DNA from: an uncultured Planctomycetaceae bacterium
GTDB lineage: Bacteria; Planctomycetota; Planctomycetia; Pirellulales; PALSA-1355
Length of the DNA: 64,000 nucleotides
Assembly: GCA_963828155.1 (NCBI GenBank)
Contig: CAWHDQ010000006.1
Span: 282,119-346,118 of the forward strand
Reading direction: 5' to 3'
Part shown: positions 1 to 64,000 of the stretch, one piece after another
Layout: each line of letters begins with the position of its first letter
How positions within the stretch are numbered: the first letter of the stretch is position 1
Notes under the pieces: generated by a model
What the model saw: the letters and a program-made list of their open reading frames with translations, nothing else
Told to the model about the DNA's origin: nothing
The model's database searches: none
Program-made: the position numbers and the translations under genes

Positions 1-212
1 GGGTGGCTGAGCAGAAACCGGACGAAGGCGCACTCGGACGAATCGTTGATCGAGAGGGCCACGATCTTGACCTTGCTCCCCTCGAACCGCCGAATGACCT
101 CCAGCAGCTGGCCCACCTTGTTTTCCAGAAACACGGTGAACTGCCGGATCGACGGATAATTGCGGCCGCGCATCGTCGAGTAGCCGGTACCCGTTCCCTC
201 GCCGATGCTCAT
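1..212 (-). CDS. ACT-domain (amino-acid-binding regulatory) protein, N-terminal part only; the gene runs off the left edge
   Basis: Absent from the ORF track because it has no stop in the window. Reverse translation from ATG 212..210 gives MSIGEGTGTGYSTMRGRNYPSIRQFTVFLENKVGQLLEVIRRFEGSKVKIVALSINDSSECAFVRFLLSH, an ACT-like pattern. Confidence 0.5.
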   Translation of the reverse strand, partial: MSIGEGTGTGYSTMRGRNYPSIRQFTVFLENKVGQLLEVIRRFEGSKVKIVALSINDSSECAFVRFLLSH

Positions 213-726
213 CGGATAGCCGCTCCGAAATCAGTCTGATTTGCCCCGCGCGGGGCGGGTCCTCCGGCCCCGGCGCTCGCGCCACTATAAAGAATCGGTT
301 AAGCCACCGTCAAACCGGCTGCCCGCGGAGCGGCCGATGGCGGCTATCGCGGCCCCGAGAGAGCCAAGGGACGAAATCGGCAAATTTGTGGCTCTTTTTT
401 TCGCTGTTTTCCCTGGGGCAGCAGGTCATAATGGAGCGACTCGGGCAATAGCTGCGGAGAGTCGGCGTGACGCGCACTACGGGGATGATGGCTCTGTGGA
501 CCCTTGCGGCCGGCGGCCTGCTGGCCGCCATGCAATGGGGGCTGTGCGCCGATCCGCCACCCAACTCGCGGCCCACGAGACCGGCGGCGGTCGAGGAAGT
601 TCGTCCCGAGCCGGCCCGTTCCGCTCATGATCAGGCCGCCAGCGCCAGCTAGCCATCCGCGACAAGTCCACCGTCGGCGAAACCAGCTCGGCGGACGACG
701 GGCCCCAGCGGGCGGCCGAAGAGTCG

Positions 727-9027: not shown

Positions 9028-10136
9028 ATGCCGGAACTTCGCGAGCTATCGCGCACCCGAGTCGTCATCGAGCAAGGCATCGCGGCAGGGCTGCATACGG
9101 GGGTCCAGGTTTTCGCGTCGATCGGCGGTGAGGCCGTGGCGGAATTGGCGATCGGCGAGCGGCGGCCGGGCCTGCCGATGCAGGCCGATTCGCTGGTGCT
9201 GTGGCTTTCGTCGACCAAACCGATCGTCGCCGCAGCCGTGATGCAACAGGTCGAGCGTGGACAGTTGGCGCTCGACGAGCCGGTCGCCCGCTACTTGCCG
9301 GCCTTCGCCGCCGAGGGCAAACAGTTGGTCACGCTCCGGCAACTGCTCACGCACACCGCGGGTTTCCGCTTCGTCGAGCTGAATTGGCCTGAATCGGATT
9401 GGGATGAGATCATTGCCCGGCTCTGCCGCGCTCGCCTGGAACGAGGCTGGGTGCCGGGCGAAAAAGCCGGCTATCACCCGTTCACCAGTTGGTACATCCT
9501 GGGCGAGCTGGTCCAGCGGGCCGCCGGGCGCCCTTAAGCGAATACGTGCGGAGCAAAATCTTCGAGCCCCTGGGCATGCGCAACTGCTGGCTCGGAATGC
9601 CGCACGAGCGATACCGCGAGTACGGCGATCGGATCGCGATCCTGCCCGACACGGAAAAGCCAAATCGCGCGGCCCATCGCTATAGCAGCGAGCGCGGAGC
9701 GACCGATTGCATTCCCGGCGCCGGCGGGCTGGGCCCGATGCGCGAGCTGGCGATGTTCTACGAAATGCTGCTCGGCGGGGGCCAACGCAGCGGCGTGCGA
9801 GTGCTTGCGGCGGAATCGGTAGCGCAAATGACCCGCCGGCAGCGCGAAGGGATGTACGACGAGACGTTCAAGCACCGCATCGATTGGGGCCTGGGCCTGA
9901 TCCTCGATTCAAAGCGCTATGGCGAACTGAACGTGCCGTACGGTTATGGGCCATTTGCCTCAGATGGCGCTTTCGGGCACAGCGGCAGCCAATCGTCGGT
10001 CGGGTTTGCCGATCCGGCTCATCGCCTGGCCGTGGGCTGCTACCTGGGCGGCACGCCGGGCGAAATAAAACATCAGTCCCGGATTCGGGCCGTGCTCGCC
10101 GCCCTGTATCAGGACCTGGGGCTGGCGGAACGTTAG
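9028..10136 (+). CDS. beta-lactamase-related serine hydrolase (class C / esterase EstB-like), interrupted by one frame break
   Basis: SxxK motif in LWLSSTKPIVAAAVMQ. ORF 8938..9537 ends ...ILGELVQRAAGRP* and ORF 9489..10136 continues PLSEYVRSKIFEPLGM. The break is at the CCC run 9531-9533; CCCC would restore the frame. Confidence 0.8.
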
Positions 10137-10146: not shown

Positions 10147-11498
10147 CTAGCGCGCCGCCGCTTCCAATACAGCGGCGGCTTCATTGCACAGCTGCAGAGC
10201 CTCGGCCGCGGTGGGCGCTTCGGCGATTGCCCGGACGATCGGTTCGGTGTTGCTCGCCCGCACGAGCAGCCATTTGCCGGGCCAATCGAGCCGCACGCCG
10301 TCGAGCTGATCGGCCGTGGCCGTGGGAAAATGCCTGGCAAGCGCGGCTAGCGCCGGCGCGATCCGCTCGCGCGGGAGAACGATCTTGGTTTTGACGATTT
10401 CGTACCGCGGTAGCTCGTTTGCCAGCTTGCCGACGGCCAGACCGCGAGCCGCCATCGCATCGAGCACCAGCGCCATCCCGACAAAACTGTCGCGCACGAG
10501 CACCACCCGCGGATCGATGACGCCGCCGTTTCCCTCGCCGCCCAGCACCGCCTGTCGAGCCAGCATCATGTCGACGACATTGGCCTCGCCCACCGCCGAG
10601 CGAAAGAACGGCACGCCGTAGCGAGCGGCCAGGTCTTCGGTCATGCGGCTGGTCGAGCAGTTCGTCACGACCGGCCCCGGCGTGCGGCGTAGCTGATGGT
10701 CGGCACAGAGGGCCAGCGTGTATTCCTCGCCCAGGTATCGGCCGCGCTCGTCGATCACGGCCAGGCGATCCGCATCCGGATCCTGGCAGAAGCCGACGTC
10801 GAGCCCCGCCTTTGCGACCCGATCGAGCACGCCGGCCAGATTCTCGGCGGTCGGCTCGGGTGGATGGGCGAAGCTGCCATCGGGCGTGCCGCCGAGCAGC
10901 GGTGAGCTGGCAGCCCGAGCGCTTCGAGCAGCCGGGTGCCCAGCACGCTACCCGAGCCATGATTGGCATCGAGCAGCACGCGAAAGTTGCGGCGGCGGAT
11001 CGCCGGCACGTTGACCAGAGACAGAATCAGGCCGAGATGGGCGGTCGTGGTGTCGACGACCGCGGCCTGCCTGCCCACGCGGTCGAAAGCGGCCCACTGG
11101 CAGGCGGATTGCTCGTAACGATTGAGAACCAGCTTGCCGGCGATTGCCGGCAGCACGCGGCCGGCGGCCGAGAAGAGTTTGAGCCCGTTGTATTCCGGCG
11201 GGTTGTGGCTGGCCGAAATCTGGATGCCGCCCGCCGCCTTGACGCTGCGGACCAGCACGCCCACCGTGGGCGTGGAGGCCACGCCCGCGTCGAGCACGTC
11301 GCGGCCGGCCGCCGTCAGGCCGGCGGAAAGCGCGGCGGCCAGCATTGGGCCAGTTGAGCGGCCATCGCGGCCGATCACGATCGGACCGGGCGGCAAGTCG
11401 GCAACAAAAGCCGCGACGTAGCGAATCGCTTCCAGCGGCGAGAGGCTTTCGCCCACGACGCCCCGCAGACCCGACACGCTGATAATCAATTGGCTCAC
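10147..11498 (-). CDS. alpha-D-phosphohexomutase (phosphoglucosamine mutase / phosphomannomutase-like), interrupted by one frame break
   Basis: GTG 11498 gives VSQLIISVSGLRGVVGE. Active-site loop GGIQISASHNPPEYNGLK; PDGSFAHPPEPTAENL; FCQDPDADR; GGEGNGG. ORFs 10755..11744 and 10147..10830 join near 10895-10910. Confidence 0.85.
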
Positions 11499-11749
11499 GA
11501 ATTCCCGCTCCGTGGGAACAACCGGTGATGCGCAACGCGCCAGCAATGGACCGCGAGACCCAACGGCCGGCAAGCGGCAGTATAGATTCACGCCGCCGCC
11601 TGGGAAGCGGGCCGCGCAAACCATTTTCCACGAGTTCGCTCGCTGCCGGTTGCCAATCGCGGCGGCCACTGGCCCGGCCCGGGCAAATCGGGCACAATTG
11701 AGCCGGCTTTCTGGCGAACCGCTTCCGCAAAACCGACCAACCAATCGTT

Positions 11750-13585
11750 ATGGCACTCGATCGCACTTCGGCCGCCGGCTACGACCAGGCCGCAGCCTTG
11801 GCCCAGCTGGACGCCGCCGCCAAGAATCAACAACTTTCGCCCGGTGCAGTGACCAACCTCCGCGCCTGGCTGTCCGAACCCCGCTACCGCGAATACGCCC
11901 CGCAGGTGGTCGAACACATGCAGGCCGGCCGCTGGAAGGACCTGGACGACGTCTTCTGGACAGTCATTCCCTTCGGCACCGGCGGCAGACGGGGCAAGAT
12001 GTACCCCATCGGCTCCAATGCGATTAACGACCGCACGATCGGCGAAAGCGCCCAGGGCCTGGCCGACTACGTGAAAGGCGTCCTGCCGGGCGGCAGCTTG
12101 TCGTGTGCGATCGCCTACGACACCCGGCATCAATCGCGACATTTTGCCGAGCTGTGCTCCGAGATCATGACCGCGGCCGGCTTCAAAGTCTTTTTCCTCG
12201 ACGGTTACCGCAGCACGCCCGAGCTGTCGTTCGCCGTGCGGATGCACAAGTGCAGCTGCGGGATCATGGTCACGGCCAGCCACAATCCACCCAGTGACAA
12301 TGCCGTGAAGGCCTATTGGTCGACCGGCGGGCAACTGCTCCCGCCCCACGACCAGGGCGTGATCGACCGCGTCATGAGTTGCAACACGATCGAGCGGCTT
12401 CCATTTGCCGAGGGGGTCGCCGCCGGAAAGATCGTCCTTTGCCAGCAGGAGACCGACGCGGCGTATATCGCCAACGTCGCGGCTCAGGCCTGGCCCGGAC
12501 CACGGCAACTCAAGATCGTTTATTCCCCGCTGCACGGCGTGGGAGCAATCGCGGTGCTGCCGGCACTGGCCGCCGACGGATTCAAGGACGTCGAGCTGTT
12601 CGGCCCGCACGCCCAACCCGACGGCGATTTTCCGAACGTGCCGGGTCACGTTTCCAATCCGGAAAATCCGCGGGTCTTCGACATCATCATCGAGCGGGCC
12701 CGCCAGACCGGCGCCGACCTGGTGCTGGCCAGCGATCCCGACTGCGACCGGATCGGCCTGGCCGCTCCCCTGCTGCCGCAAGCCGGCAGCGACTGGGCCA
12801 CGATGACGGGCAATCAGATCGCGGCCCTGCTGGCCGAGTATTTGCTCGAGCGCCGCCAGGCCGCCGGCCGGTTAGCCCCGCAGGGCTATGTGGTCAAAAC
12901 GCTCGTCACGACCGAGATGGTCCGCCGGATTGCCGACGCCTACGGCGTGCGGACGTTGGGCGATCTGCAGGTTGGCTTCAAGTACATCGGCGGAACGATG
13001 GACGAGGCCGGACCGGAGAATTTCATCTTCGGCTGCGAGGAATCGCACGGCTACCTGGTGGGCTCCTATGCCCGGGACAAGGACGCGGCCGTGGCGGCGA
13101 TGCTGCTGGCCGAGCTGGCCGCCCAGGTGAAAGCGGCCGGCCAGACGCTGCACCAGAAGCTCGATGCCCTGTATTGGCAATACGGTTGCCACGCCGAGCG
13201 GCAGGTTTCGATCGCGATGCCGGGTTCGGAAGGAATGGCCCGCATCGAGGCCCTGATGGCGCTGCTACGCAAGGAGCCCCCCCAGCAACTGGCCGGTTTG
13301 CGAGTGCGCCGAGTGCGCGATTATCTGAACCTGCGCGAACTGACTCCCGGCACCGCCTGGACCGCGTTCGCCGGTCCCAAGGGGGACATGGTGATGATCG
13401 ACCTCGACGCACCCGGCACGTACGTGGCCGTGCGTCCCTCGGGCACGGAGCCCAAGGTGAAGTTTTACATGTTCGATTTCGAGCCGGCCGAGCAGATCCA
13501 CGATTTGGCGGCAGTCAAGCAGCAGCTGTCCGATCGGCTCGACCGTCTGGCGGCCGACCTGGCCGCGTGCTCGAAGACGTCGTAG
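11750..13585 (+). CDS. phospho-sugar mutase (PgcA/PGM2-type phosphoglucomutase-phosphomannomutase)
   Basis: Intact 611-aa ORF. GIMVTASHNPPSDNAVKAYW active-site loop, ASDPDCDRIG metal loop, GCEESHGY sugar-binding loop, RPSGTEPKVKFY phosphate loop. Confidence 0.9.
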   Translation: MALDRTSAAGYDQAAALAQLDAAAKNQQLSPGAVTNLRAWLSEPRYREYAPQVVEHMQAGRWKDLDDVFWTVIPFGTGGRRGKMYPIGSNAINDRTIGESAQGLADYVKGVLPGGSLSCAIAYDTRHQSRHFAELCSEIMTAAGFKVFFLDGYRSTPELSFAVRMHKCSCGIMVTASHNPPSDNAVKAYWSTGGQLLPPHDQGVIDRVMSCNTIERLPFAEGVAAGKIVLCQQETDAAYIANVAAQAWPGPRQLKIVYSPLHGVGAIAVLPALAADGFKDVELFGPHAQPDGDFPNVPGHVSNPENPRVFDIIIERARQTGADLVLASDPDCDRIGLAAPLLPQAGSDWATMTGNQIAALLAEYLLERRQAAGRLAPQGYVVKTLVTTEMVRRIADAYGVRTLGDLQVGFKYIGGTMDEAGPENFIFGCEESHGYLVGSYARDKDAAVAAMLLAELAAQVKAAGQTLHQKLDALYWQYGCHAERQVSIAMPGSEGMARIEALMALLRKEPPQQLAGLRVRRVRDYLNLRELTPGTAWTAFAGPKGDMVMIDLDAPGTYVAVRPSGTEPKVKFYMFDFEPAEQIHDLAAVKQQLSDRLDRLAADLAACSKTS

Positions 13586-15332: not shown

Positions 15333-16416
15333 ATGCAATCGGCCCAATTCCAACTCCACGCCGAGATCGAGCTGCGGCACTGGTGGTTCGTTGCCCGGCG
15401 GGAGATACTTCGTCGGGTGATTGGGGCCGTGGCGCCGCCAGGCTGCGGCCAGCTGGTGGTCGACGTCGGCTGCGGCACCGGAGCCAACCTCGGGGCCCTG
15501 GCCGGCGATTACGAGACGTTGGGCATCGATACCTCGGCCGAGGCGATCGACTTGGCCCGGCGGCGGTTTCCCCAGGTCGAGTTCCGCCAGGGCTTCGCTC
15601 CGGACGACGTCCGGGATGGCCTGGCGCGAGCGAGCGTCGTCGTGCTCTCGGACGTCCTGGAACACGTGCCCGACGATTTTGCGCTGCTTCTCGTCGATCC
15701 TGGCGGCCCTGCGGCCGGGTGCCTGTCTGCTGCTGACCGTGCCGGCCCATTTGGCCCTCTGGAGCCAGCACGACGAGAGTTTCGGCCACTATCGCCGCTA
15801 CGACCAGCGGCGGTTCGAGCAGTTGTGGCAGGGGCTGCCCGCCCGGGCAGAAATGGTGTCCTACTATAACAGCCACTTATACGGCATCGTGAAGCTGGTC
15901 CGCGGTTGGAATCGCTGGACGGGCAAAGCCAGCGGCCACGCCGGCACCGATTTTCGCGTGCCGCCGCCGCCGCTGAACCAGCTGCTCCGCTGGACGATGA
16001 CCCGCGAGAGCCGACGCTTGCTGCGGCTCGTTCGCGGCGAGCGGGCCACGCCGTTTCGCAGCGGGGTCAGCCTGATGGCCCTGGTGCGGCGCGAGCCGGG
16101 GGCATGCGTCGTGCGGGGCAAACCGGCCGGCACAGCCGCGGATTACTTCGATCCGCAAGGGCAACGGGCGTCGGCGCTGAGTCGCCCCTCGAAACTCGCA
16201 AGTCTCGATTGCCCGAGCCCCGCTTTTCGCCTTGGGGCGCCGCCAGTCGCCACCCGCTGGGCACTCGCTAGCAATCACGCTACAATGAGCGTCGTCGCGG
16301 CAGCGAGGCGGCTTAAGTCTGACCGCGCCAGAAAACGCCTGTTGGCGACCGCAAATTTGGGTACCCGACGATTCCCGGATCCAGCCAGCGGTTTGCCCGT
16401 CGGCGCAAAAAAATAG
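15333..16416 (+). CDS. class I SAM-dependent methyltransferase, interrupted by one frame break; 3' end uncertain
   Basis: Motif I VVDVGCGTGANLGAL and LSDVLEHVPDD in ORF 15333..15869. Continuation ILAALRPGACLLLTVPAHLALWSQHDESFGHYRRY in ORF 15421..16416. Break near 15685-15700. The last ~100 codons are low-complexity and may be out of frame. Confidence 0.75.
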
Positions 16417-16448
16417 AGGGTCCTTGCTCGCCGGGGCAAGAACCCTCT
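16415..16448 (-). terminator. hairpin with its T-run on the minus strand (orphan or bidirectional terminator)
   Basis: agagggtccttgc...gcaagaaccctct imperfect 13-bp stem. Preceded on the plus strand by A7 (16407-16413), which reads as hairpin + T7 on the minus strand. Confidence 0.4.
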
Positions 16449-16634
16449 TACTTGGCTGTCTGAACTTCACAATTTTGGGTTTGTGTTGTCCAGAGACCCA
16501 CAGCCGTACAGACCCTATCGGGCCAGCCCGCCGGGGAACTTTAGCTTGCTAGCCGCAAACTGCCTGCCTGGCCGCCGGCCGGACCGTTCGACCCGCACCT
16601 TCCCCACCGTTTGACCCCGCACTGGGCTTGCGCC

Positions 16635-19121: not shown

Positions 19122-19275
19122 GGTGACCTGTCTTGTTCAGAAGTTGCGTTGCAGAGCTGGCCGACGGAACGGAATTCGAAGTCGGATCGTGCAAACGGCA
19201 CGCGTGAGATCGGGTCCACGCGACTCGGCTTCCGCGAGGAAGAACACCTCCCTCCTGCGGCGCCCAGTCGCCCGC

Positions 19276-39434: not shown

Positions 39435-39583
39435 GGTTGGCGAAGGCGGCGGACTTGTTGCCGAATGGGGGCCACGCCGGGGGCAAAGGGGGAAGTTTCA
39501 CCGCAGAGTGCGCGGAGGACGCGGAGGGCACGTGCGAGCGCAGGGGAACGGGCGCCGGTGTGAACGACAGCCAACGAAATAGC

Positions 39584-40327: not shown

Positions 40328-40357
40328 ACAGACACGTGTACCGTGTGGCTCGGCAAG

Positions 40358-40929: not shown

Positions 40930-41000
40930 AGGATCACACTATGCCGATTCAAACTCACGAGCAAGAGTCCGCACGACCCGCGCTCGGAGGCGAACGCGCC

Positions 41001-42253: not shown

Positions 42254-42336
42254 GACTTGAGCTCCTGGCAAAGCGGAGGGATGAATTTCGTTGGCTTGGC
42301 GAAGCAGGACGGACTGTCGAAGACGCTTGGTCCCCG

Positions 42337-46968: not shown

Positions 46969-49539
46969 TCAATCCGTCATTGAGCCGCCTTCGCGCTTCG
47001 ATTGCCATACGGACCAGAGCAATCCCAGGACGCAAACGGCCACCGCCCCCCAATAGAAGTTATTGAGCGGCTCTTCGACCAGACCGGTGACGCCGATGCT
47101 CTTGAGCTTGTCGACGACCGCATGATCGAACGGCAGGATCAAGGGAATGATCAGCAGGCTGACCATGTTCATCACCTTGATCAGCGGGTTGATCGCCGGA
47201 CCGGCAGTGTCCTTGAGCGGGTCGCCCACGGTGTCGCCGGTCACAGCGGCCTTGTGCTTCTCGCTACCCTTGCCGGTATTGGCTTCCAGGTCGCGGGGTT
47301 CGTCCTCGACCATCTTCTTGGCGTTGTCCCAGGCGCCACCGGCATTGGCCATGAACACGGCCAGCAACTGGCCGCTGACGATCATGCCGGCCAGGAACCC
47401 GGCCAGGGCGATGATGCCCATCCCGAAGCCGACCAGGATCGGCACCAGAATCGCGAGCAGCGCCGGACCGACCAACTCCTTCTGCGCCGAGCCGGTGCAG
47501 ATGGCCACGACGCGGCCGTAGTCGGGTTTCTTGGTGCCGGCCCAGATTTCCTTGTCGCGGAACTGGATTCGGCATTCCTTGACGATCAGAAACGCGGCCC
47601 GGCCCACGGCCCGAATGGTCATCGAGCTGAACAGGAACGGCACGCTGGCCCCGATCAAGAGGCCGACGAACAAGCTGGGATTGGAGACCGTGATCATGGC
47701 CGCCACGGCATCGTAGACGTCGCGACTGACGTTGGCCTTTTCGCCCTGGCCGCCGGAGCCGACCGAGACGATGAAGCTGTTGAACAGCGACACGGCCGCG
47801 ATCACGGCCGAGCCGATCGCGATGCCCTTGGTGATGGCCTTGGTGGTGTTGCCCACCGCGTCCAGGTCGGCCAGGGTCTGGCGGGCTTCCTTGTACTTGG
47901 CATCGCCCATCGCCTGGCGGTCGTAGCCCATTTCGCCGATGCCGTTGGCGTTGTCGGCGACCGGCCCGAACACGTCCATCGAGATCGTGTTGCCGGTGAG
48001 CGTGAGCATGCCGATGCCGCACATCGCCACGCCGTAGGCGACAAACGTGGCATTGGTGCCGGAATAGACAAACACGCTCGCCATGATGGCCGCGGAAATG
48101 ATGAGCACGGCGGCCACCGTGCTTTCGTAACCCACGGCAAAGCCTTGAATGATGTTCGTCGCGTGGCCGGTACTACAGTTCTTGGCCAGGCTCTTGACCG
48201 GCTCGTACTCGGTGCCGGTGTAGTATTCGGTACACTTGTTGAGGAGCACGGCCAGGATGATGCCGATCAGGCAGGTCCAGGCGGGGCGCATGTCCAGGCC
48301 GGGCATGTTGAAATTGACCCACTGCGGCAGGCCGGCCGTGGTGTTTTCGATCGTGTGACCGGGGAAGCCAGCGGCGGCTTGCGGGTACTCCTGCAGGTAG
48401 TGATCGTCGAACCGCAGATAACCCAGGCCCAGGAGCACGAAGCCCACGATCGACAGCATCGAGCCGATCACGAAGCCCTTGTTGACGCTCTTCATGGCCT
48501 CAGAGGCCGTGCCCTTGTCGCCAGCCCGGACGCTGTAGGTGCTGATGATGCTGGCCACGACGCCGATGGCCCGGACCAAGAGCGGGAAGATCACGCCCTT
48601 GTGGCCGAAGCTGGCAATGCCCAGGATCATGGCGGCCACGATGGTCACTTCGTAGCTTTCGAAGATGTCGGCCGCCATGCCGGCGCAGTCGCCGACGTTG
48701 TCGCCGACGTTGTCGGCGATGGTGGCGGCGTTGCGGGGGTCGTCCTCGGGAATGCCGGCCTCGACCTTGCCGACCAGGTCGGCGCCGACGTCGGCCGCCT
48801 TGGTATAGATGCCGCCGCCGACCCGCATGAACAGGGCCAACAGCGTGCCGCCAAAGCCGAAGCCCAACAAAGCTTCATAGGCCTCTTCGCCGTAAATCAA
48901 AAAGATAATCGAGCCGCCCAAGAGGCCCAGGCCGTCGGTCAACATGCCGGTGATCGTGCCGGTCCGGTAGCCAAGCTGGAGGGCCTTGCCGAAGCTATCC
49001 TGGGCCGCCGCGGCGACGCGCAGGTTGCCGACCGTGGCCAGCCGCATGCCGACGAAGCCGACCGTTGCCGAGAAAATCGAGCCGATCAGAAACGAAATCG
49101 CCCGGCCGATGGCGATTTCCTGCGGCGCGGGTGGCTCCTGTTTGGTGGCCGCCAGGTACAGGCCGATCGTAATCACGACGATCAGGACGGCCACGACCCG
49201 GAACTGCTTATAGAGATACGCGTTGGCCCCTTCGCGGATGGCCTGGGCGATCTCTTGCATCCGGGGCGTGCCCTGCGGAGCATTTTGCACCTGACCGACC
49301 AGCATCAGCGCATACGCCAGGCCGGCGATGGCCACGAGCACGTTGGCGATCAAGGCGATCTTCTCGACCTGGTTGTACTTGTCGCTGGTCAGAGGCTCCC
49401 AGAGCGGAATGTGGCTGACCACGGTCTCGCCCGCGGCGCCGATCACCAGCGCCGGCCGCATTTGGAGCCAACTGGCCGCTCCCAACAGCACCACCGCCAG
49501 GACGGCTAGGGCCGGAACAACAGCTCGCTTCATGATCAC
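46969..49539 (-). CDS. hppA: membrane-bound proton-translocating pyrophosphatase
   Basis: Intact 856-aa polytopic ORF. GGGIYTKAADVGADLVGKVE, DNVGDNVGDCAGM, GDTVGDP. The GNTTKAITKG motif has Lys where K+-dependent enzymes have Ala, suggesting the K+-independent type. Confidence 0.95.
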   Translation of the reverse strand: MIMKRAVVPALAVLAVVLLGAASWLQMRPALVIGAAGETVVSHIPLWEPLTSDKYNQVEKIALIANVLVAIAGLAYALMLVGQVQNAPQGTPRMQEIAQAIREGANAYLYKQFRVVAVLIVVITIGLYLAATKQEPPAPQEIAIGRAISFLIGSIFSATVGFVGMRLATVGNLRVAAAAQDSFGKALQLGYRTGTITGMLTDGLGLLGGSIIFLIYGEEAYEALLGFGFGGTLLALFMRVGGGIYTKAADVGADLVGKVEAGIPEDDPRNAATIADNVGDNVGDCAGMAADIFESYEVTIVAAMILGIASFGHKGVIFPLLVRAIGVVASIISTYSVRAGDKGTASEAMKSVNKGFVIGSMLSIVGFVLLGLGYLRFDDHYLQEYPQAAAGFPGHTIENTTAGLPQWVNFNMPGLDMRPAWTCLIGIILAVLLNKCTEYYTGTEYEPVKSLAKNCSTGHATNIIQGFAVGYESTVAAVLIISAAIMASVFVYSGTNATFVAYGVAMCGIGMLTLTGNTISMDVFGPVADNANGIGEMGYDRQAMGDAKYKEARQTLADLDAVGNTTKAITKGIAIGSAVIAAVSLFNSFIVSVGSGGQGEKANVSRDVYDAVAAMITVSNPSLFVGLLIGASVPFLFSSMTIRAVGRAAFLIVKECRIQFRDKEIWAGTKKPDYGRVVAICTGSAQKELVGPALLAILVPILVGFGMGIIALAGFLAGMIVSGQLLAVFMANAGGAWDNAKKMVEDEPRDLEANTGKGSEKHKAAVTGDTVGDPLKDTAGPAINPLIKVMNMVSLLIIPLILPFDHAVVDKLKSIGVTGLVEEPLNNFYWGAVAVCVLGLLWSVWQSKREGGSMTD

Positions 49540-51864: not shown

Positions 51865-53579
51865 TCACTGACCACAGGCCGGAGCGCAGCCGCCGGCCGC
51901 AGCACAACCACCGGCCACCGGCACCTGGCAGGTCACGGTCTTGGGGACCATCTTGCAAACCTGAACCTGGACTTCCTTCTGCACGGTGTAGGGCACCTGG
52001 ACCGTGACGGTCGACTTCACCTCTTCGGCCACGCAGCGGTAGGTGGTCACGTTACGCGTGCCGGTGCGGGTTTCCGGCTCGCAGTAGTTCTCGGTCACTT
52101 CGCGGGTGGCCGGCTCACTGACCATCTTGCAGACCTGGACCTGCTTGGTCCGGGTTTCCGGATGGCACTCGGTGTACTGAACCTCGCGAGTCGCCGGCTC
52201 ATTCACCATCTTGCAGACCTGAACCTGCTTGGTCCGCGTCTCCGCGTGGCACTCGGTGTACTGAACCTCGCGAGTCGCCGGCTCATTGACCATCTTGCAG
52301 ACCTGAACCTGCTTGGTCCGGGTCTCCGCGTGGCACTCGATGTACTGAACCTCGCGAGTCGCCGGCTCATTGACCATCTTGCAGACCTGAACCTGCTTGG
52401 TTTGCACTTCCGGCTTGCAGAGCGTCACCTGGTACTCGAACGAAACGTTCTCAATCTGCTGCTGCATGCAAGTGACGGGCACCTGCTTGCTGACGATGTT
52501 CGGCACCCAGCGGCGCTGCGTCGTCGCACATCCGCTTGGGGCACATCCGCTTGGGGCACAGCCACTCGGAGCGGCACAGCCACCCGAATTGCAAGCCGGA
52601 GCACAGCCGCTCGGCGCACACCCGCCGCCGCCGCCGCGGTGATGGCGGAAGCCGATCGTCTGAATCGAGTTGGCGGCCGTCTTAGCCGTCTTAGCCGCCG
52701 CGGGCGCGGCCGAGGCACCATTCGACGCACAGGCAGGCGCACCACAACCGGGCGCCGCAGCCGGAGCACAGTTGACCGGCACATCTTCCCAGTGGCCTTG
52801 ATCCTCGCAAACGGTCTTCATGACGGTCACGGGAACGAGCTTGCAAACCGGGCGGCGTGCCTTGCCGCGTTTCGGTGTAAGGCACCATCACGGTCACCTG
52901 CTGGTCAACCGTTTCCATCACCGGCTTGCAGACCGTGTAATTGACGGTCCGGGTCTTCGTCTCGGGGACCATCACCGTGTATTGCTGTTCGACCGTCTCC
53001 ATCACCGGCTTGCAGACGGTGTAGTTGATCGTCCGGGTCTTCGTCTCGGGGACCATCACCGTGTACTGCTGTTCGACCGTCTCCATCACCGGCTTGCAAA
53101 CCGTGTAGTTGATCGTCCGGGTCTTCGTCTCGGGGACCATCACCGTGTACTGCTGTTCGACCGTCTCCATCACCGGCTTGCAGACCGTGTAGTTGACGGT
53201 CCGGGTGCGAGTCTTGGGCACCATCACGGTGTATTGATAGCAGACCTGGCGGGTCTCGGGCACGTTGCGATAGACGGTGCGAGTGACTTCACGCTGCTCG
53301 GCGCGGCACTCGGTAACGTTGACCGTGCGGGTTTCCGTGACCATCGTCGGCACCATGATCGTGCGCTCGACGGTCTGATAGGCCGGCGCACAGGCCGGCG
53401 CCTGCAGCCTGGCAGGCACCGCCCGCCTGGCAAGGAGCCGCGGCTTGGCAAGGCGAATTGTTGCAGCCCGAATCGCAACAGCCGCCGCCGCGTCGCCAAT
53501 GTCCTCCGGCCTCCGCCACCGAAACTCCGGCCGCGAGAACTGCCAAAACTGCCCACCAACACTCACGCTGAATCTTCAT
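51865..53579 (-). CDS. secreted Cys-rich YTV-type repeat protein (planctomycete envelope protein class); two frame breaks
   Basis: GGAG SD before ATG 53579. Signal peptide MKIQRECWWAVLAVLAAGVSVA. CxxC/GC-rich spacers. Four 28-aa repeats YTVMVPETKTRTINYTVCKPVMETVEQQ and 3.3 28-aa repeats KQVQVCKMVNEPATREVQYTECHAETRT. ORFs 53289..53663, 52691..53566 and 51865..52830 join near 53395-53410 and 52845-52855. Confidence 0.8.
52121..52400. repeat. 84-bp tandem repeat, ~3.3 copies, coding (28-aa unit)
   Basis: The unit start accatcttgcagacctg recurs at 52121, 52205, 52289 and 52373. Copies 52205-52288 and 52289-52372 differ at 2 of 84 positions by my reading. Confidence 0.9.
52915..53250. repeat. 84-bp tandem repeat, 4 copies, coding (28-aa YTV unit)
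   Basis: The unit start ccatcaccggcttgca recurs at 52915, 52999, 53083 and 53167. Copies 52999-53082 and 53083-53166 differ at 2 of 84 positions by my reading. Confidence 0.9.
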
Positions 53580-54182: not shown

Positions 54183-57100
54183 ATGCAGAGTTTTTGGTCG
54201 CGGCTGTGCGTGATTGCTTTACTGGCCGCCGTACTAGGTTTGGCGATCGAAGCCACCCGTTCGGACCGGGGCGGTTCGCAATCTGGCCCGGCGGCGCCAA
54301 CCGAGCTGCGCCAAGGCAGAATCTTCACCAGTTGGCACCGCGATTGCTCCGGACGGCAAATCCACAGCCGCAAGCCCGTCACCGGGTAGCCGGGCGGCCG
54401 CCGAACCGCCGGGCGAACTGCTGGCGATCGCTTCGCCACCGGACATCGAGCGGTCCGAGCCGCACTTCGGCATCACCGAGCGGACGCCCTGGACCACGTC
54501 GCACATCCAGGGCACGCCCGAGCCTCCGCCCCCTTACCAGACGCGGCAGCTCTACCCGCACCTGCATTTCAAGGAGCCGGTGGCGATCGTCGCGGCGCCG
54601 ACGATAAATCGATACTTCCTCTGCGAGCACGAGGGGAAGATTTATTCGTTCTCGTTCGATCCCCAAGTCGAGCAAGCCCAGTTGGCCATTGACCTGCGGA
54701 AGCAAGTGCAAACGGTCCACTTGTGCAAAGACGCCGCCAAGGTGACCGAGCTCTACGGAATGGCGCGTGCACCCCAAGTTCGCCGAGAACCGGTACTGCT
54801 ACGTCTGCTACAAGATGGATCCCAACTACTGGGGTCAAATCGAAAATGGGACGCGCGTTTCACGGTTCACCGTCACCGAGAGCGATCCGCCCAAGCTCGA
54901 CCCGGCCAGCGAGCAGATCGTCATCAGCTGGCTCGGTGGCGGACATAACGGCGGCTGCCTCGAGTTCGGTCCCGACGGCTGCCTGTACATTTCCAGCGGC
55001 GACGGCGGTTTTCCGAATCCACCCGATCCGCACCATACCGGCCAGGATGTCGGCGATCTGCTGAGCTCGGTGCTGCGGATCGACGTCGATCACGAGCAGC
55101 AGGATTCCTCCGGCGCAACCCGGCCGTACACGATTCCGGCCGATAATCCGTTCGTCGGCCAGAGCGGCGTCCGGGGCGAAATCTGGGCCTACGGATTTCG
55201 CAATCCCTGGAAGATGAGCTTCGATCGGGCCACCGGAGACCTGTGGGTCGGCGACGTGGGTTGGGAACTGTGGGAGCTGGCCGATCGCGTCGTCCGCGGA
55301 GGCAATTACGGCTGGAGCGTCGTCGAAGGTCAGCAACCGGTCTACCCCGATGCGAAGCGCGGTCCGACGCCCATTCTGCCTCCAACAATCGCCGTACCGC
55401 ACACCGATGGCGCTTCGATTACCGGCGGCTACGTCTATCGCGGCAAGCGCCTGCCCGATCTGGTCGGCACGTATGTCTTTGGCGATTGGGAATCGCGCCG
55501 CATCTGGGCGCGCGCGCGTCCAGGGCGACAAGGTCGAACCCTACGTCGAGATCTCGTTGCCCGGCCCGCGGATCGTGGCCTTCGGCGAAGATCCGGAGGG
55601 CGAACTGCTCGTCCTCGACTTCGATCACGGCACGATCCACGAGCTGGTGCCCAACCCCCGGGCAGGCTCAGTCGATACCTTTCCCACCAAGCTAAGCGAG
55701 ACCGGACTGTTCGCGAACGTGGCCGAGCAGCGGCCGGCGCCGGGCGTGATCGACTTTTCGATCCAGGCCCCGGCCTGGGCCGATTATGCCACGGCCCAGC
55801 GTTGGGTAGCCCTGCCCGACCGTTCGACGGCCACGATCCACGCCGAGCCGGTCGAAGTACACGAATCGATGTTCCGGGAGCTCGTCACGTTTCCTGCCGA
55901 CGGCGTGCTGGCCAAGACGATCTCGCTGGAGATGAGGCAAGGCGACCCGGCGACGGCCCGGCGTCTGGAAACGCAGATCCTGCACTACGACGGCCGCTAT
56001 TGGCGAGGGTACACCTACGCCTGGAACGACGAGCAGACCGAGGCCACGCTGGTCGAAGCCGCGGGCCGCAATCGCACCTTTGACATCGAAGATCCGCAGG
56101 CTCCCGGCGGCCATCGCAAGCAGATTTGGCACTTTGCCAGCCGCAACGAGTGCCTGCAGTGCCACAATCCCTGGGCGGGTTTCCGCCTGGCCTTCACCGC
56201 GCCGCAGCTCAATCGCGACCACTGCTACGGCGAGCGCACCGACAACCAGTTGCGGACCCTGGAGCACATCGGCTTGATCCGCTTCGAGCCGCCGCTGCCT
56301 TCGATCGACGAGCCCGAAGTGACTCCGGAGTTGAAACCGCCGGGCCGCCTCGCCAATCCGTACGACGAGCATGCCGAGCTGGATCCCCGAGCCCGGGCCT
56401 GGCTGCACGTCAATTGCTCGCATTGTCATCAGTTCGGCGCCGGCGGCACGGCCGACATCGAGCTCCGCGAGGAATACCCGGTCACGGCCACGAAGGCGCT
56501 CGAAGCCCCCCCGCGGCAAGGCAGTTTCGGGATCGCCCGCGGGCAATTGCTCGCGCCGGGAGATCCATACCGCTCGATCCTCTACTACCGCATTGCCAAG
56601 ATGGGCCGCGGCCGGATGCCCCACATCGGATCCGACCTGGTCGATGTGCCTGGAACGAAGTTGATCCACGACTGGATCCGGCAACTGCCGGTCCATAAAG
56701 ACGAATTTGCGGCGGTCGAGAGGCTGCGGGCGCTGGATGAGCAAACCAACCTGGACCGCGAAGCTCGGGAAAACCGCCGCCGTCTGCGGCAATTGGCCCG
56801 CGACATCGCCCGCGAAAGCGAGCGGCTCGAGCCCACCGACGAAGACCGGGCCCAGGCCCCCAAACGCCGCGAGCGCGAGTTGGCCGACGCGGCCAAGAAT
56901 CGAGCGACCGACCGGATCAACACGATCAATCAGCTGCTGTCGGCGCCGGCATCCGCCCTGGTCCTGGCGCGTTCGATGGATACGAAGCCCTTGCCGCCGG
57001 TGATCGAACAGCAGACGCTGGCCGCTGTCGCAGCCCTGACCGACAGCCAGGTGCGCGATCTGTTCGAGCGGTTCCTGCCGCCCGAGCAGCGGTTCGAGCG

Positions 57101-57561
57101 ATTGGGCACCGCTTTCGACGCCGCGGCGCTACTGGCCAGGCCCGGTGACTCCGAGCGCGGCAAGGCAATCTTCTTTCAACTCTCGGGCGTCCAGTGCAAG
57201 AATTGCCACCGGATCGGCGAGACAGGGGGCTCCATCGGCCCCGAATTGGACCACGTCGGCAAAAAGCTCAATCGGGCCCAGCTGCTCGAAAGCCTGGTCG
57301 AGCCGTCCAAAACGATCGATCCCAAGTTTACCGTCTACCTCGTCGAGACGACCGCCGGTCAGACCTACAGCGGCCAGCTCGTCGAACGGACGGCCGAGCA
57401 AATCGTGCTCAAGGACGCCGAAGGCAAAATCATCCCCGTGCCGGCGGGCGAAGTGGAAAAGGTTTCGCAGCTGACCAAGTCGCTGATGCCCGACCAATTG
57501 CTCCGCGACCTCAGCCCAGCAGGCCGCCGACCTGCTCGAATACTTGGAATCGCTGAAGTAG
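54183..57561 (+). CDS. large secreted glucose/sorbosone-dehydrogenase-like beta-propeller protein with three CxxCH heme-c motifs and a PVC-type heme-binding C-terminal domain; four frame breaks
   Basis: MQSFWSRLCVIALLAAVLGLA signal/anchor. GGHNGGCLEFGPDGCLYISSGDGG, GEIWAYGFRNPWKMSFD, NYGWS. CLQCH, CSHCH, CKNCH. Tail SLMPDQLLRDLS-QQAADLLEYLESLK*. Pieces from 54183, 54580..54948, 54767..56083 and 55350..57596 join near 54305-54315, 54760-54770, 55508-55520 and 57510-57520. Confidence 0.8.
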
Positions 57562-57706
57562 GACGAGTGCCGCTTCGAGTCCGGTCGAACCGATGACGAA
57601 CGGCGGCACCGCGCAGCGAGCCGTGGGGCTCGTCCCCACGGTATGCCCGGCGCCGAAATCGGCGCTGCGCCAATCGGGAGCGTGGCGTCAATCTGCCTGG
57701 CACGCC

Positions 57707-58532
57707 CTACCGCCCTGCCAGTTCTTGCCGCAAGGCGACCAACAAGTCGGGCCGATTCGTGATGATGCCGCTCACGCCCCAGGCGGCCAGCGTGCGCATT
57801 TGCTCCGGTTCGTCGACAGTCCAGGCCCAGCAGCCCAGCCCCCGGCGCGAATTTGGCCGACCAAATTGGCGGAGAGTTGCTCGTGGTCCCAGGCGAGCAG
57901 AGGCAGTTGTCGCCGCTCGATTTCGTCGAGTCGCTCTGAGGTAAGCTCATCCTCGCCCAGGGCCGCCAGAACCAATTCGGGCGCGAGCCGCCGACAAGCC
58001 GACAGAAACTCCCAATCAAATGCCTGAACCACAACCCGGTCTAGTGCGTTCAAACGTCCGAGCAGTTCGAGGCACCGCTCGGCCGGCCCCGCCTTGCGCT
58101 CGATGAGCACGAGCGCGCGGGGAACAATCAGCTCCACGGCCGCGGCGAGCGTGGGAATCCGGCGCCGGCGAATGCGGGCTGGAAACAACCGCCGGCATCC
58201 AGGGCGGACAACTGCTCGGCCGTCCAGTGATCCAGTCGATCGCTGGGCGCCAGCGCCGCATGCCGCCGCCAGTCGGTGGTGCGGTCGAGCCGCTCGTCGT
58301 GAAACACCAGCGGCACGCCGTCGGCCGATTCGCGGCAGTCGAGCTCGACCAGATCGACGCGGTCGGATCCATCGGCGGCGCCGCCGATTTGGAGCGCCGC
58401 TTGAAACGCCGGCAGCGTATTCTCCGGGGCGACGGCGCTCGCCCCGCGATGGGCAATCGCCAATAGCCGGCCGGACTCGATCAACTGGCGGGCCGTCGGA
58501 CGAGCGGGGGAAAGGTCGGCGGTTCCACTCAT
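57707..58532 (-). CDS. glycerophosphodiester phosphodiesterase (GDPD) family protein; two frame breaks
   Basis: LLAIAHRGAS..APENTLPAFQAAL...VELDCRESADGVPLVFHD; AFAGA / RIPTLAAAVELI near 58155-58165; IRAGG / LGCWAWTVDEPEQMRTLAAWGVSGIITNRPDLL at the C5 run 57839-57843 (six would restore the frame). Confidence 0.82.
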
Positions 58533-61120: not shown

Positions 61121-61372
61121 GGCAGGGTCGTCTCCAGGGTGAGGGTGGAGGTAAAGCATGCCCGAGCGTCTGCGGGAAATCAAGTCAACCGCCGATGCCC
61201 CAGCCTGCATTCGAGGCCGGGGAGCGATGGCAGGCCAGGCCGCGGGCGGGGGCCGTTTTTGCCGCGCTGATTGGATTGATCGAGACTGCGTGCTAGGTCA
61301 AGATAAGAGACCAGCTTTTCGCTCGCTGTTCTCGTCCCGGCCACTCCTCTGGCACTCGACAGGCAGTGGAAT

Positions 61373-64000
61373 ATGCCCATCGAAAACTTTTGCGATTCGT
61401 GCGGCAAGCTGCTGCGAGTGCCCGATCAATTTGCGGGCAAGCGTGTGAAGTGCCCCAGCTGCGGCGGGGCGGTCTCGATGCCGGCAGCCGGCCAGGTTGT
61501 CGTCAAGGTCGCGCCCGTTGACCAGCCGCAAGCTCGCGCCCAACCCAAAGTCGCCCGGCCAAAGCGCGCGAATCCAGAAAGCGCCGGCCCAACCCAAGCC
61601 CGCCACCAGTGCGGCGGAGCCCCAGTCCCCCGTCCCACGGGTGACGGCCCGACCCGTGAAGGTCGTCCCGATTCAGCCGGAAAGCCTGCCGGAACCGAAC
61701 GGGCTCGGCGCCAACCTGGACGAATTCGGCGAGCTGATGCAGTCGGGCGGCGAGCTGGCTGCGGCCGGCGCTGTTTTCGGCACCGCTGCCGGCGCGGCGC
61801 CGCCCGACGCCCTGGCTGAAGATCGGCGGCGCGGCACTCGCCGGGGTGGCGGCCCTGGTGGGCGTGGTCTCGGCGATTGTCTCACTCAACGGCAATTCGG
61901 GGGACGCGCCGGCCCCGCATCCAGTGGCCGCGAACTCCAGTGGGCCATTGCCAGTCGCGCCCATTGCCGGAGGCATTCCGTCCGCGGAAGCAGGATCGTT
62001 GCCAGCGACGGGCTCGGCACCAACCGCCGCTGGACTGACGCCGGTTTGGGTCAAGAAAGGGGACCTCGAACAAGCCGATCTGCAACTGGCGGGCACGCCG
62101 GGGCAACCAGGGGGCGGCATGAAGCTATATCTCTACCGCCCCGCGGGTCAGATCGAGCCGCACACCTTGCCCTGCATTTTCATGGCTCCAGCCGGGGCCA
62201 CGGTCCTTTCGGGCATGTCGCTAGGAGAAGGAGATCGGACCGAGCATTATCCCTGGGCTCTGGCGGGCTACTTTGTCGTTAGCTATGAGATCGACGGCGA
62301 CGTCGGCGACCTGGCCAAATCGACGGTTGCCGATTTGCAAGTGGCCTTCCGCAAATTCGCCGCGGCCGAGGCCGGGCTCACCAATGCCCGCCTGGCCATG
62401 CGAACCGCGCTGGCAAGTTGTCCGGAAATCGATCCGCAGCAATTGTTCGTCGTCGGGCACAGTTCGGCCGCGACGTTGGCCTTGATCCTCGCCGAGAACG
62501 AGCCGAACTTGCGCGGCTGCGTAGCATTTGCCCCCGTTTCAAACATGGTCGAGCGGGCGTCCGACGGTGGCGGCGATTTGTTCCGCCTGGTGCCGGGATC
62601 CGAGGCCTTCGTCCAGAAATACTCGCCGCACTTACACGTGCAATCGTTCGGCTGCCCGCTGTACTTGTTTCATGCTCAGGACGACGACAACGTTCCTTTT
62701 CAGCAAAGCCAGACCTTTGCGAACCTGCTCCGCGGGCAGGGAAAGGAAGTCCACTTGGCCCAAACCAACGTTGGCGGGCATTACGAATCGATGGTGAAGT
62801 CTGGCATTCCGTTGGCCATCGACTGGCTGGCCAAACAGCGCGGCATCGACCCGCGCCGCCCGGCGGCGAAGACGCCCCCTGCGAAGACGCCGCCCGCCCA
62901 GCCTGATTCGCCCGCTGAAACACCGGTCGCCGGCCCGCCGCCGATTCCCATGCTGCCGGGGTTCCCGGGCCGACCGGAAACGCCGAAAGCCAAGCTCGCT
63001 CCTGGCTCACCCCCCGCGCAGTGGCAAGTCGAATCTGATGGAGTCGAGCTGACCGCGGGCGAGTGGAGCAAGCGCCGGCGCCGTGCCGGTGGATGGAGCG
63101 TACGATCACAAATCGGTCGGATTGCCAGCCTACGCCAGTCCGCTGGTAGCGGTCCGTGATCCACAGCACACGATCGGCATCTGGAACCTCGCCACAGCCA
63201 AACGCGTGGAACAGATCAAGGCCCGGGGCATCGACCAACTGCAGTCGCTGGCGCTGAGCCCCGACGCAAAATATCTGGCAGGGCGCAATTGGAATTCGCT
63301 CGAAGTCTGGGATTGCAGCTCGGGGCGCCGGATCGTCAAAACGGAGGTCCAATTGCATGGTGACCACTCTATCCAATTCGCCGGTCTCGAACGGTTGATT
63401 TGCGTCGAGCAGCGCAACGGCAAGGCAACCGCGTCGGTCTTTGGGCTGCCCAAGGGTCAGCTGGAACATCAGATCGAGCTGGGGGAATGGACCTTTAACA
63501 CCGCTCAGCTCGCCATGAGCCCCGGCGGACGCTATCTGGCGATCTGCGGCAAGACTCTGCGGCTGGTCTCTGTGGCTGATGGCGAAACGGCCGGCGAGGT
63601 CGCCTGGCCCAAGGCCCAGCAGGCCGGTCACCCGGTCGAGCTCGCCCCCTCGGCCGCGGCGTTTTCGCTCGACGGTACGCGACTCGTCACACTCTGCCGC
63701 GCCGGCGCCGACACGTTGGCGATCGTCTGGAACGTCGCCACCGGCGAGGTTGTGCAGCATGTATCAATCGCCGACCGCGGGTTCGGCTTTGGCTGGCGCG
63801 GGCAGCGGGCGATTCAGTGGTCGCCCGATCAAAAACACTGGCTGCTCTACGAACGGGCCCTCGCTGCGGCCGAAACCGGCGAGATCGTCTGGCCTCCCAA
63901 CGCCACGCCCCGGCACGATGCCCCGGCGGTAGCCTGCTACGTCGATAACGATCGGGTGCTGATGATTAGCGGCTCGGGCTTCAGTTACAACGCGACGGTC
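61373..64000 (+). CDS. multidomain protein: N-terminal zinc ribbon, Pro-rich linker, TM helix, alpha/beta-hydrolase (dienelactone-hydrolase-like), Pro-rich linker, WD40-like beta-propeller; three frame breaks; runs off the right edge
   Basis: MPIENFCDSCGKLLRVPDQFAGKRVKCPSCGG; WLKIGGAALAGVAALVGVVSAIV; VVGHSSAATLAL...HAQDDDNVPF...VGGHYES. From ~63085 an open frame with no stop to 64000 reads TIGIWNLATAKRVEQIK...LALSPDAKYLAG...LEVWDCSSGRRI...FSLDGTRLVT...LAIVWNVATGEVV. Breaks near 61565-61600 (poorly placed), 61808-61813 and 63078-63083. Confidence 0.7.

Follow-up and report, generated by a model that had tools for sequence, protein, structure and literature searches.

One-base frame breaks in a Pirellulales contig concentrate at GCGC and are very probably consensus errors

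The window, the whole 64,000-nucleotide stretch of DNA analysed here, has a GC content of 65% and derives from a Pirellulales-like planctomycete. Frameshift-aware alignment to intact orthologues, combined with the colinearity of Pfam matches, revealed about 36 one-base events across 21 of the 42 mapped genes (roughly 22 insertions vs 14 deletions), and several single genes carried two to four breaks in the alignments. The initial annotation had described about 30 breaks in about 20 conserved genes, in which consecutive, colinear pieces of one protein lie in different frames and the gain or loss of a single base rejoins them. Both statements held in the Viterbi segmentation, the tblastn searches and the alignments, and 29–30 of the 32 junctions listed at that time were confirmed. 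Six further breaks were added: a second insertion in the phosphoglucosamine mutase (PGM) gene, one in the FGE-sulfatase gene (~20317–20359), a pair in the glycosyltransferase (GT) gene (26410/26473) and a pair in the kinase/tubulin-like gene (~34155/~34228). Rfam and tRNA scans were both without a match.

Frame switches were located by Viterbi segmentation based on codon usage, orthologues were collected by tblastn from four related contigs (labelled L001–L004), and events were placed by a frameshift-aware protein-to-DNA dynamic programme written for this analysis. GC1/2/3 filtering of stop-to-stop ORFs was dropped in favour of the Viterbi segmentation because long spurious ORFs at this GC content blurred it. 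Plain nucleotide global alignment to the relatives, which was too noisy outside conserved stretches, was likewise replaced by the protein-to-DNA programme. The events are given below with their coordinates, strand and supporting evidence; "new" marks those beyond the earlier list.

642–652, + strand: putative, unproven 1-nt deletion between a signal-peptide ORF (452–649) and the penicillin-acylase body (652–2829)
9526–9533, + strand: 1-nt deletion, beta-lactamase-family gene (9061–10136); Viterbi switch at 9525/9526; context GGGCGCCC
10897–10907, - strand: 1-nt insertion, GlmM-like phosphoglucosamine/phosphohexose mutase gene (10150–11510); aligned to L001 and L002 orthologues
10913–10917, - strand: second 1-nt insertion, GlmM-like mutase (PGM) gene, ~10–19 nt from the first; GCGC 2 nt away; new
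15686–15687, + strand: 1-nt insertion, class I methyltransferase gene (15333–16182); 2/2 references; context TTGCGCTGC
18375–18386, - strand: 1-nt insertion, GAP1-N2 gene (17839–19121); 2/2 references
18790–18792, - strand: 1-nt insertion, GAP1-N2 gene; 2/2 references; overlaps GCGC
20046–20051, - strand: 1-nt insertion, DO-GTPase gene (19279–20186); 2/2 references; overlaps GCGC
20129–20133, - strand: 1-nt insertion, DO-GTPase gene; 2/2 references
20317–20359, - strand: probable 1-nt insertion, 3' end of the FGE-sulfatase gene; both references, residue 360; loosely placed; new
22139, - strand: 1-nt insertion, conserved hypothetical gene (21501–22260); alignment; context AAGCGCAGC
26410–26411, - strand: 1-nt insertion, glycosyltransferase gene (25264–26530); 2/2 references; context GCGCGCGCAGCGCGC; new
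26473–26476, - strand: 1-nt deletion, glycosyltransferase gene, compensating that at 26410; 2/2 references, with only ~6 upstream residues; new
27665, + strand: 1-nt deletion, redoxin gene (27291–27928); alignment
29403, + strand: 1-nt deletion, FHA-EAL gene (29281–30449); 2/2 references; context GCGCGCCGGCGCC
31885, + strand: 1-nt deletion near the start of the kinase/tubulin-like gene (31862–34859); one reference
32520, + strand: 1-nt deletion, kinase/tubulin-like gene, residue 221; alignment and three-way comparison with L003 and L004
34131–34159, + strand: 1-nt insertion, kinase/tubulin-like gene, in an A3T4 run; Viterbi excursion 34143–34230; new
34225–34232, + strand: 1-nt deletion, kinase/tubulin-like gene, compensating the insertion at 34131–34159; Viterbi and alignment; new
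35706, - strand: 1-nt insertion, M20 peptidase gene (35344–36652); 2/2 references; context GGCGCC
37136–37147, + strand: 1-nt insertion, proA (37083–38352), ~codon 19; alignment; context CAGCGCCCGCC
38553–38558, + strand: 1-nt insertion, fliM (38384–39431), in GGCCCC; homopolymer case
41477, - strand: 1-nt deletion, DUF1501 gene (41004–42283); 7/7 metagenome orthologues concur
42714, - strand: 1-nt deletion, PSCyt2/PSD1 gene (42340–44454); 7/7 references
43373, - strand: 1-nt deletion, PSCyt2/PSD1 gene; 7/7 references; context AGGCGCGG
43597, - strand: 1-nt deletion, PSCyt2/PSD1 gene; 7/7 references; context TTGCGCGC
45635, - strand: 1-nt deletion, murD (45564–46861), residue 409/433; alignment; context CTGCGCAG
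52856, - strand: 1-nt insertion, YTV-repeat gene (~52470–53579); 2/2 references
53384–53416, - strand: 1-nt insertion, YTV-repeat gene; 1/2 references
54765–54767, + strand: 1-nt insertion, PQQ-sugar-dehydrogenase (GSDH)/cytochrome c gene (~54343–57561); 2/2 references; context GGCGCG
55509, + strand: 1-nt insertion, PQQ-sugar-dehydrogenase/cytochrome c gene, at GGGCGCGCGCGC; 2/2 references
57514, + strand: 1-nt insertion, PQQ-sugar-dehydrogenase/cytochrome c gene, 15 codons 5' of the stop; Viterbi and 2/2 references
57838–57844, - strand: 1-nt deletion, GDPD gene (57716–58532), at GCCCCCGGCGCG, a C5 run; alignment
58161–58164, - strand: 1-nt deletion, GDPD gene, at GGCGCC; alignment
61589–61628, + strand: 1-nt insertion, Zn-ribbon/alpha-beta-hydrolase/WD40 gene (61373 to >64000); homologues P0362 and P0363; GCGC at 61581–61584
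61740–61813, + strand: 1-nt insertion, Zn-ribbon/alpha-beta-hydrolase/WD40 gene; alignment; GCGC sites at ~61770–61805
63052–63083, + strand: 1-nt insertion joining the hydrolase and WD40 parts; needed by P0362, P0364 and P0368; context AAGCGCCGGCGCCG

Close orthologues confirmed 26 of the junctions in the initial annotation, mostly within 10 nt of where they had been put. The junction at 9531 was confirmed by Pfam colinearity, with positions 6–159 of the Beta-lactamase profile in 9061–9525 and 163–305 in 9528–10055. In the DUF1501 gene, the Pfam profile likewise runs from 1–223 to 235–386 across the break, and the gene is unbroken at 80 metagenome loci. The three junctions at 61565–61600, 61808–61813 and 63078–63083 were supported by the 888-aa homologue P0362 (50% identity), which spans all of them. 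The placement at 54305–54315 was not confirmed; one of two references points to a pair near 54406–54456. At the first event, the Penicil_amidase profile is intact over 652–2817 (1–674 of 675), and upstream of it the signal-peptide-like MMALWTLAAGGLLAAMQWGLCA lies in a different frame, with GCGC at 642–645. Several low-similarity events, backed by some references only or by alignments of at most 50% identity, were left uncounted: GAP1-N2 at 18096–18214, h201 at 28731–28966, the YTV C-terminus at ~52436, the GSDH N-terminus at 54406–54456 and DUF1501 at 42248.

Every break could be repaired by one base, after which colinear homology returned in the frameshift-aware alignments. Undoing the events in 16 genes yielded 7,355 codons whose sole stop was attributable to the imprecise placement of one event; no genuine in-frame stop remained after correction, and no nonsense codons, larger deletions or IS insertions were found across these codons. 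In tblastn searches, frames 3' of the breaks matched orthologues as well as the 5' frames did, a comparison that is powerless for very recent events. Naive ORF calling does mis-annotate the window, as had been stated, with half of the mapped genes mis-called. Since the unbroken genes were consistent with random placement both in number and in combined length, selection has not shaped the break pattern. Placement was indifferent to gene function and essentiality: the alignments bore out that proA, murD and the GlmM-like mutase gene are hit. They also showed no frameshift in the 611-aa mutase, carA and cstA, which had been listed as untouched. The same held for ppdK, der and cysK (full-length NCBIfam coverage) and for hppA (NCBIfam profile 13–733 of 782, with an unbroken alignment to eight relatives). 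The search with hppA on genome contigs returned a closest relative of 82% identity without synteny, and so served only to show that hppA is intact.

The context statistics were limited to the 31 well-placed events (18 insertions and 13 deletions, an excess of ~1.5:1), among which both signs occur as the initial annotation had reported. Sixteen of the 31 lay within 1 nt of GCGC vs 2.0 expected, an approximately eight-fold enrichment (binomial tail p ~7e-12), and 19 lay within 4 nt vs 3.2 expected; the other 12 were distant from any GCGC. Among 178 k-mers tested, GCGC had the lowest p-value, tied with its sub-word CGC. Based on the intervals of the initial annotation itself, GCGC was present at 21 of 32 junctions vs 3.8 expected, and 5,000 simulations peaked at 11. 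The number of breaks per gene correlated with GCGC count (Spearman 0.60, p = 2e-5), compared with only 0.36 for gene length. The (GC)n case at 55508 follows the GCGC rule rather than departing from it. Homopolymer runs of at least three bases were not enriched (12 of 31 events vs 9.1 expected, p = 0.15), runs of at least four were marginally so (5 events vs 2.1 expected, p = 0.06), and the best placement of many events fell at a run length of 1–2. The earlier statement placing the resolvable breaks at short homopolymers therefore applies to a few cases only (C4 at 38553–38558, C5 at 57838–57844 and C3 at 9531), and homopolymer indels, then proposed as the mechanism, are not the main one.

The broken genes are whole on the relatives' contigs, and the PQQ-sugar-dehydrogenase/cytochrome c gene has >100 full-length orthologues of 1,050–1,100 aa. 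The protein database also holds P0241, which is the window's own truncated 707-aa product of this gene. Relatives' contigs named contig_N_np1212 carry breaks of their own elsewhere, in cstA, GDPD, murD, serS, the kinase and the h445 gene; by eye, ~5–6 of 19 breaks in relatives lie at GCGC. In one MFD long-read MAG hppA is split. The initial annotation had named orthologous breaks in sister genomes, together with uniform support from high-quality reads, as a sign of true pseudogenes. Orthologues on L001 and L003 and in metagenomes were intact, and the closest relatives showed no breaks at the same positions; the lone shared site, kinase residue 221, is common to the window and the more distant L004. 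In the three-way alignment, both are one base short at GCGC(C)GC, where the intact L003 reads GCGCCGC. L004 is nearer to L003 than to the window, yet L003 is intact at this residue, and because the shared loss contradicts the phylogeny we regard it as a recurrent error.

Judged from the sequences, the frame breaks are very probably consensus errors of a long-read metagenome assembly, with a GCGC-specific systematic error as the main source, and not gene lesions; that they represent a data-quality problem rather than biology is almost certain. The earlier preference for sequencing or assembly error over genome decay is well supported by the occurrence of indels only, the involvement of essential genes, the intact orthologues and the contig-specific breaks. 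Approximately 60% of the breaks would stem from a motif-specific systematic error in which basecalling or polishing adds or drops a single base at or beside GCGC, at roughly 5% of such sites. The likeliest cause would be a GCGC modification in the organism (HhaI-type cytosine methylation) that perturbs the signal, although a weakness of the consensus model on the GCGC k-mer could have the same appearance without any modification. No DNA methyltransferase, for GCGC or any other site, is evident in the window. The remaining ~40% would be ordinary sporadic or short-homopolymer indels, and the names of the relatives' contigs (ending in _np1212), together with the 478-kb length of the contig that holds the window, suggest a nanopore platform. 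It is unlikely that ordinary homopolymer indels of long-read or flow-based sequencing explain the whole set, with GCGC incidental: the three C runs above, the A3T4 run near 34155 and the marginal excess at longer runs fit such an origin, but runs of at least three are not enriched, many placements have a run length of 1–2, and the GCGC enrichment was repeated with the earlier coordinates.

Real pseudogenisation or genome decay of very recent date, in which the organism truly carries the frameshifts, is very unlikely. In principle the glycosyltransferase and kinase genes could carry true compensating pairs, and the murD break, only 24 codons before the end, might be tolerated. Against this stand the restriction to one-base indels in the 7,355 corrected codons, the random-like placement that takes in essential genes, the accumulation of as many as four breaks in one gene, and downstream frames that resemble orthologues as much as upstream frames do. 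The lone recurrent site is at odds with the phylogeny, and without it no break position recurs in the closest relatives. One-base indels at GCGC also match no known mutational signature. We consider it very unlikely that the breaks are real through a GCGC-targeted process, such as faulty repair of nicked or restricted (un)methylated GCGC sites, that very recently scattered one-base indels over the lineage's genome and inactivated about half of the region's genes. The chance that the cell recovers the frames by programmed recoding (ribosomal frameshifting or transcriptional slippage) is negligible. The breaks all shift the frame by one base, in one direction or the other, which is nothing specific to recoding, and the ~36 sites are spread over 21 unrelated genes, require both +1 and -1 shifts, and have no common slippery heptamer or A/T run. 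The single-frame, unbroken orthologues effectively refute recoding.

Systematic nanopore errors that centre on a motif and result from base modification have been documented (Modpolish, Chiou et al. 2023, PMC10687267; Genome Res 2024, PMC11610573; Hammerhead, Liu et al. 2024, PMC11610603), and GCGC is the 5mC site of M.HhaI (PMC6547721). Like these Oxford Nanopore errors, the breaks in the window are centred on one short motif and recur at a homologous site; the likeness extends to the persistence of the errors through consensus building and polishing, their specificity to a lineage, and the damage they do to gene calling and typing. Mismatches rather than indels make up most of the published modification-mediated errors (PMC10687267, PMC11610603), with substitutions dominating (C>T, G>A, purine/pyrimidine ambiguity), whereas the window shows indels, and its platform and modification are presumed; methylation is therefore not established as a cause of indels. 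Only indels are visible in the window because frame breaks are what the analysis detects, substitutions being inseparable from divergence. The window also resembles long-read-only bacterial assemblies and MAGs with homopolymer indels in its split ORFs (~0.7 per kb of coding sequence), its inflated gene counts and a minority of events in C4 or C5 runs. It differs from them in the lack of enrichment at runs of at least three, in the surplus of insertions over deletions and in having most events at GCGC. Pseudogene-rich decaying genomes, such as those of host-restricted bacteria, share with the window many frameshifted conserved genes. In such genomes lesions of several kinds occur together (stops, deletions, IS elements), essential genes are spared and close relatives have breaks in common; none of these traits was found in the window.

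The breaks carry little biological weight, as the cell's own copies of the genes are almost certainly unbroken. Truncated products such as P0241 are nevertheless already in public protein collections, and this MAG would give wrong pseudogene counts, wrong estimates of completeness and wrong pathway inferences. The association with GCGC suggests a targeted fix, either inspection or re-polishing of GCGC sites or a methylation-aware model, and also leads to the prediction that GCGC is probably modified in this uncultured Pirellulales. Mining the contexts of frame breaks across deposited assemblies could reveal error modes tied to particular motifs. The insertion excess is unlike the classic nanopore homopolymer-deletion signature.

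The window contains about 36 one-base insertions or deletions, distributed over 21 of 42 genes, which split single genes between reading frames. A codon-usage Viterbi segmentation, trained on the window's intact genes, gave many direct same-strand frame switches, and tblastn with relatives' proteins placed consecutive portions of single proteins in different frames. We employed a custom protein-to-DNA aligner permitting one-base insertions and deletions, validated on the DO-GTPase gene and applied to 25 genes with one or two references per gene. Events were found in 15 genes, and both references agreed wherever two existed. Frameshift-aware alignment to relatives' orthologues revealed no frameshift in 13 control genes (mutase, DUF2628, 3-keto-disaccharide hydrolase-like, carA, cstA, an HTH gene, and the hypothetical genes h146, h103, h500, h445, h131, h201b and h166), among which the mutase, carA and cstA had already been described as untouched. 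The closest relatives, at 75–85% amino-acid identity, are found on four contigs from a single ENA metagenome assembly (ERZ26871208), syntenic with the window at positions 10–39 kb and 45–59 kb:

contig_158605_np1212, loci L001 and L003
contig_184753_np1212, loci L002 and L004
contig_88748_np1212, locus L085
contig_189725_np1212, locus L086

Based on these alignments and on Pfam colinearity, 29–30 of the 32 junctions in the initial annotation were confirmed as real frame breaks. Its count was too low, with six further breaks in the following genes:

10150-11510, minus strand, GlmM-like mutase (a second insertion)
FGE-sulfatase gene (one break)
25264-26530, minus strand, glycosyltransferase (two breaks)
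31862-34859, plus strand, kinase/tubulin-like gene (two breaks)

The junction at 54305-54315 was not confirmed at that place. At position 650, an intact Penicil_amidase domain is preceded by a signal-peptide-like ORF in a different frame, which makes a one-base break plausible, though unproven. In DUF1501 and PSCyt2/PSD1 the Pfam profile halves were colinear; the single deletion in the former and the three in the latter received the same placement from 7/7 independent orthologue pairs, and the rejoined 411-aa DUF1501 protein matched a single uninterrupted frame at 80 loci in a metagenome scan. The beta-lactamase-family gene broken at 9526 matched its Pfam profile at 6–159 and then 163–305. An 888-aa homologue of the last gene (P0362, 50% identity) spans 61565-63997 only once three insertions, near 61628, 61782 and 63082, are removed. 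On the minus strand, the alignments of the glycosyltransferase (at 25261-25320) and of an M20 peptidase (at 35344-35400) end 45–64 and about 21 residues, respectively, before the orthologues' C-termini; these ends are either divergent or hold further undetected breaks.

Next to the positions of the breaks, their sequence context was analyzed by rescoring all possible indel positions against orthologues, which gave a best-placement interval per event. The 31 best-placed events comprised 18 insertions and 13 deletions, in line with the earlier observation that both occur, and were compared with 2,000 random draws of coding intervals matched in width. Homopolymer runs, initially proposed as the cause, were not enriched at a length of at least 3 (12/31 events vs 9.1 expected, p = 0.15) and only marginally so at a length of at least 4 (5/31 vs 2.1, p = 0.06), so that this mechanism was largely wrong. 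Among 178 strand-collapsed 2- to 4-mers, the largest excess was that of GCGC, whose p-value, equal to that of its sub-word CGC, was also the lowest. GCGC lay within 1 nt of 16/31 events (2.0 expected) and within 4 nt of 19/31 (3.2 expected), with binomial tails of about 7e-12, and the bias was present in both signs (12/18 insertions, 7/13 deletions). The intervals of the initial annotation, picked without knowledge of the motif, showed the same GCGC bias, with 21/32 cases vs 3.8 expected, where 5,000 simulations peaked at 11. The less precisely placed junctions 650, 9531, 54309, 61581, about 61800 and 63075 were likewise on GCGC. No flanking specificity beyond NGCGCN was apparent by eye. Breaks per gene correlated with GCGC count (rho = 0.60, p = 2e-5) and more weakly with gene length (rho = 0.36); of the 411 GCGC sites within genes, roughly 5% bear a break.

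The preference for sequencing error over genome decay was right. Correcting one base per event allowed 7,355 codons in 16 genes to be read through, with a lone stop at the one loosely placed event and no nonsense mutations, large deletions or insertion elements elsewhere in these codons. Broken genes include proA, murD and the GlmM-like mutase, while 36 events placed at random by gene length or by GCGC count reproduced both the 21 untouched genes (P = 0.34 and 0.57, respectively) and their total length (P = 0.08 and 0.20). Hence, the intact ppdK, hppA and cstA require no selective explanation. Relatives carry these orthologues unbroken, as do many independent metagenome contigs, most of them from short reads. 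The np1212 contigs have breaks of their own that fall in other genes: on L085, cstA is divided into three pieces and GDPD into two; murD is broken on L086, and serS, h445 and the kinase on L002/L004. hppA is split in one long-read MFD MAG. Across assemblies of the same kind, split genes were h445, kinase, redoxin, cstA, GDPD, murD, serS and hppA, and about 5–6 of 19 breaks in relatives adjoin GCGC, judged by eye. The frame-split regions are:

L004 7619-10004
L085 5832-7573 and 13364-14162
L086 5411-5911
L002 5570-6887
L016 9938-12548

The window and L004 are each one base short at kinase residue 221, where intact L003 reads GCGCCGC; L003 is nearer to L004 than the window is, and recurrent error explains the site better than shared ancestry. 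One-base indels at GCGC are not known to match any mutational signature. Slippage in (GC)n would alter two bases at a time, and 5mC deamination produces transitions, which argues against a biological origin. As biology, the frame breaks are almost certainly not a real feature; the pattern is that of a systematic, motif-specific consensus error, and a GCGC-linked error mode should take the place of the homopolymer mechanism.

We infer a nanopore platform from the Flye-style contig names with 'np' suffix in the relatives and from the size of the window's contig. Recurrent nanopore errors at modified motifs, which withstand polishing, are documented (PMC10687267, PMC11610573, PMC11610603), and GCGC is the 5mC site of M.HhaI (PMC6547721); we therefore favor a GCGC modification in this organism that would disturb basecalling or polishing. 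Published errors of this type consist mostly of mismatches, whereas only indels can be detected here, and a consensus model weak on GCGC regardless of modification would give the same picture. Besides the favored GCGC-modification errors, the remaining events may be ordinary sporadic and short-homopolymer indels, such as those at C4 (38553) and C5 (57838). The value of the breaks lies in a data-quality warning and a hint that this uncultured planctomycete methylates GCGC.

GC content was 65% throughout, and tRNA and Rfam scans of the 64 kb found no tRNA genes or Rfam matches. The phospho-sugar mutase (11750-13585) was 100% identical to P0001, a database protein from a single 478,418-bp contig, whose nearest named homologues are MAG proteins from Pirellulales/Planctomycetota. 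hppA (46972-49470) lies between murD and cstA and is absent there in L085 (4145-6653) and L086 (5411-8086); hppA loci of other Planctomycetota had no neighbours in common with the window. A 1.6-kb stretch (39432-41018), non-coding by score under the host codon model, is located exactly where L003 synteny ends. Within it, a ParE-toxin ORF (40358-40648, minus) abuts a 93-aa ORF (40648-40929, minus), and the two probably form a toxin-antitoxin pair within a small accessory insert. The kinase gene, of roughly 1,000 aa, encodes a Ser/Thr protein kinase in fusion with a Tubulin_2 (tubulin-like) domain, an architecture (1,000–1,200 aa) that predominates among the best 120 matches, all on Planctomycetota-type contigs. 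GAP1-N2, DO-GTPase1-2 and an FGE-sulfatase-domain protein form a conserved three-gene block, syntenic between the window and two relatives and with breaks in 3/3 of the window's genes; to judge by its domain names, it may be a conflict or defence-type system centred on a GTPase:

17839-21406, minus strand, window
15896-19489, L001
17922-21687, L002

Two adjacent YTV-repeat proteins (51874-53579, minus) are internally repetitive, and the final part of the upstream gene shares an open frame with the downstream gene, so that naive ORF calling fuses the two. The truncated 707-aa product of the 55350-57596 region, which comprises just the cytochrome c part, is a separate entry in a public protein collection (P0241); the frame breaks have thus already propagated into protein databases.
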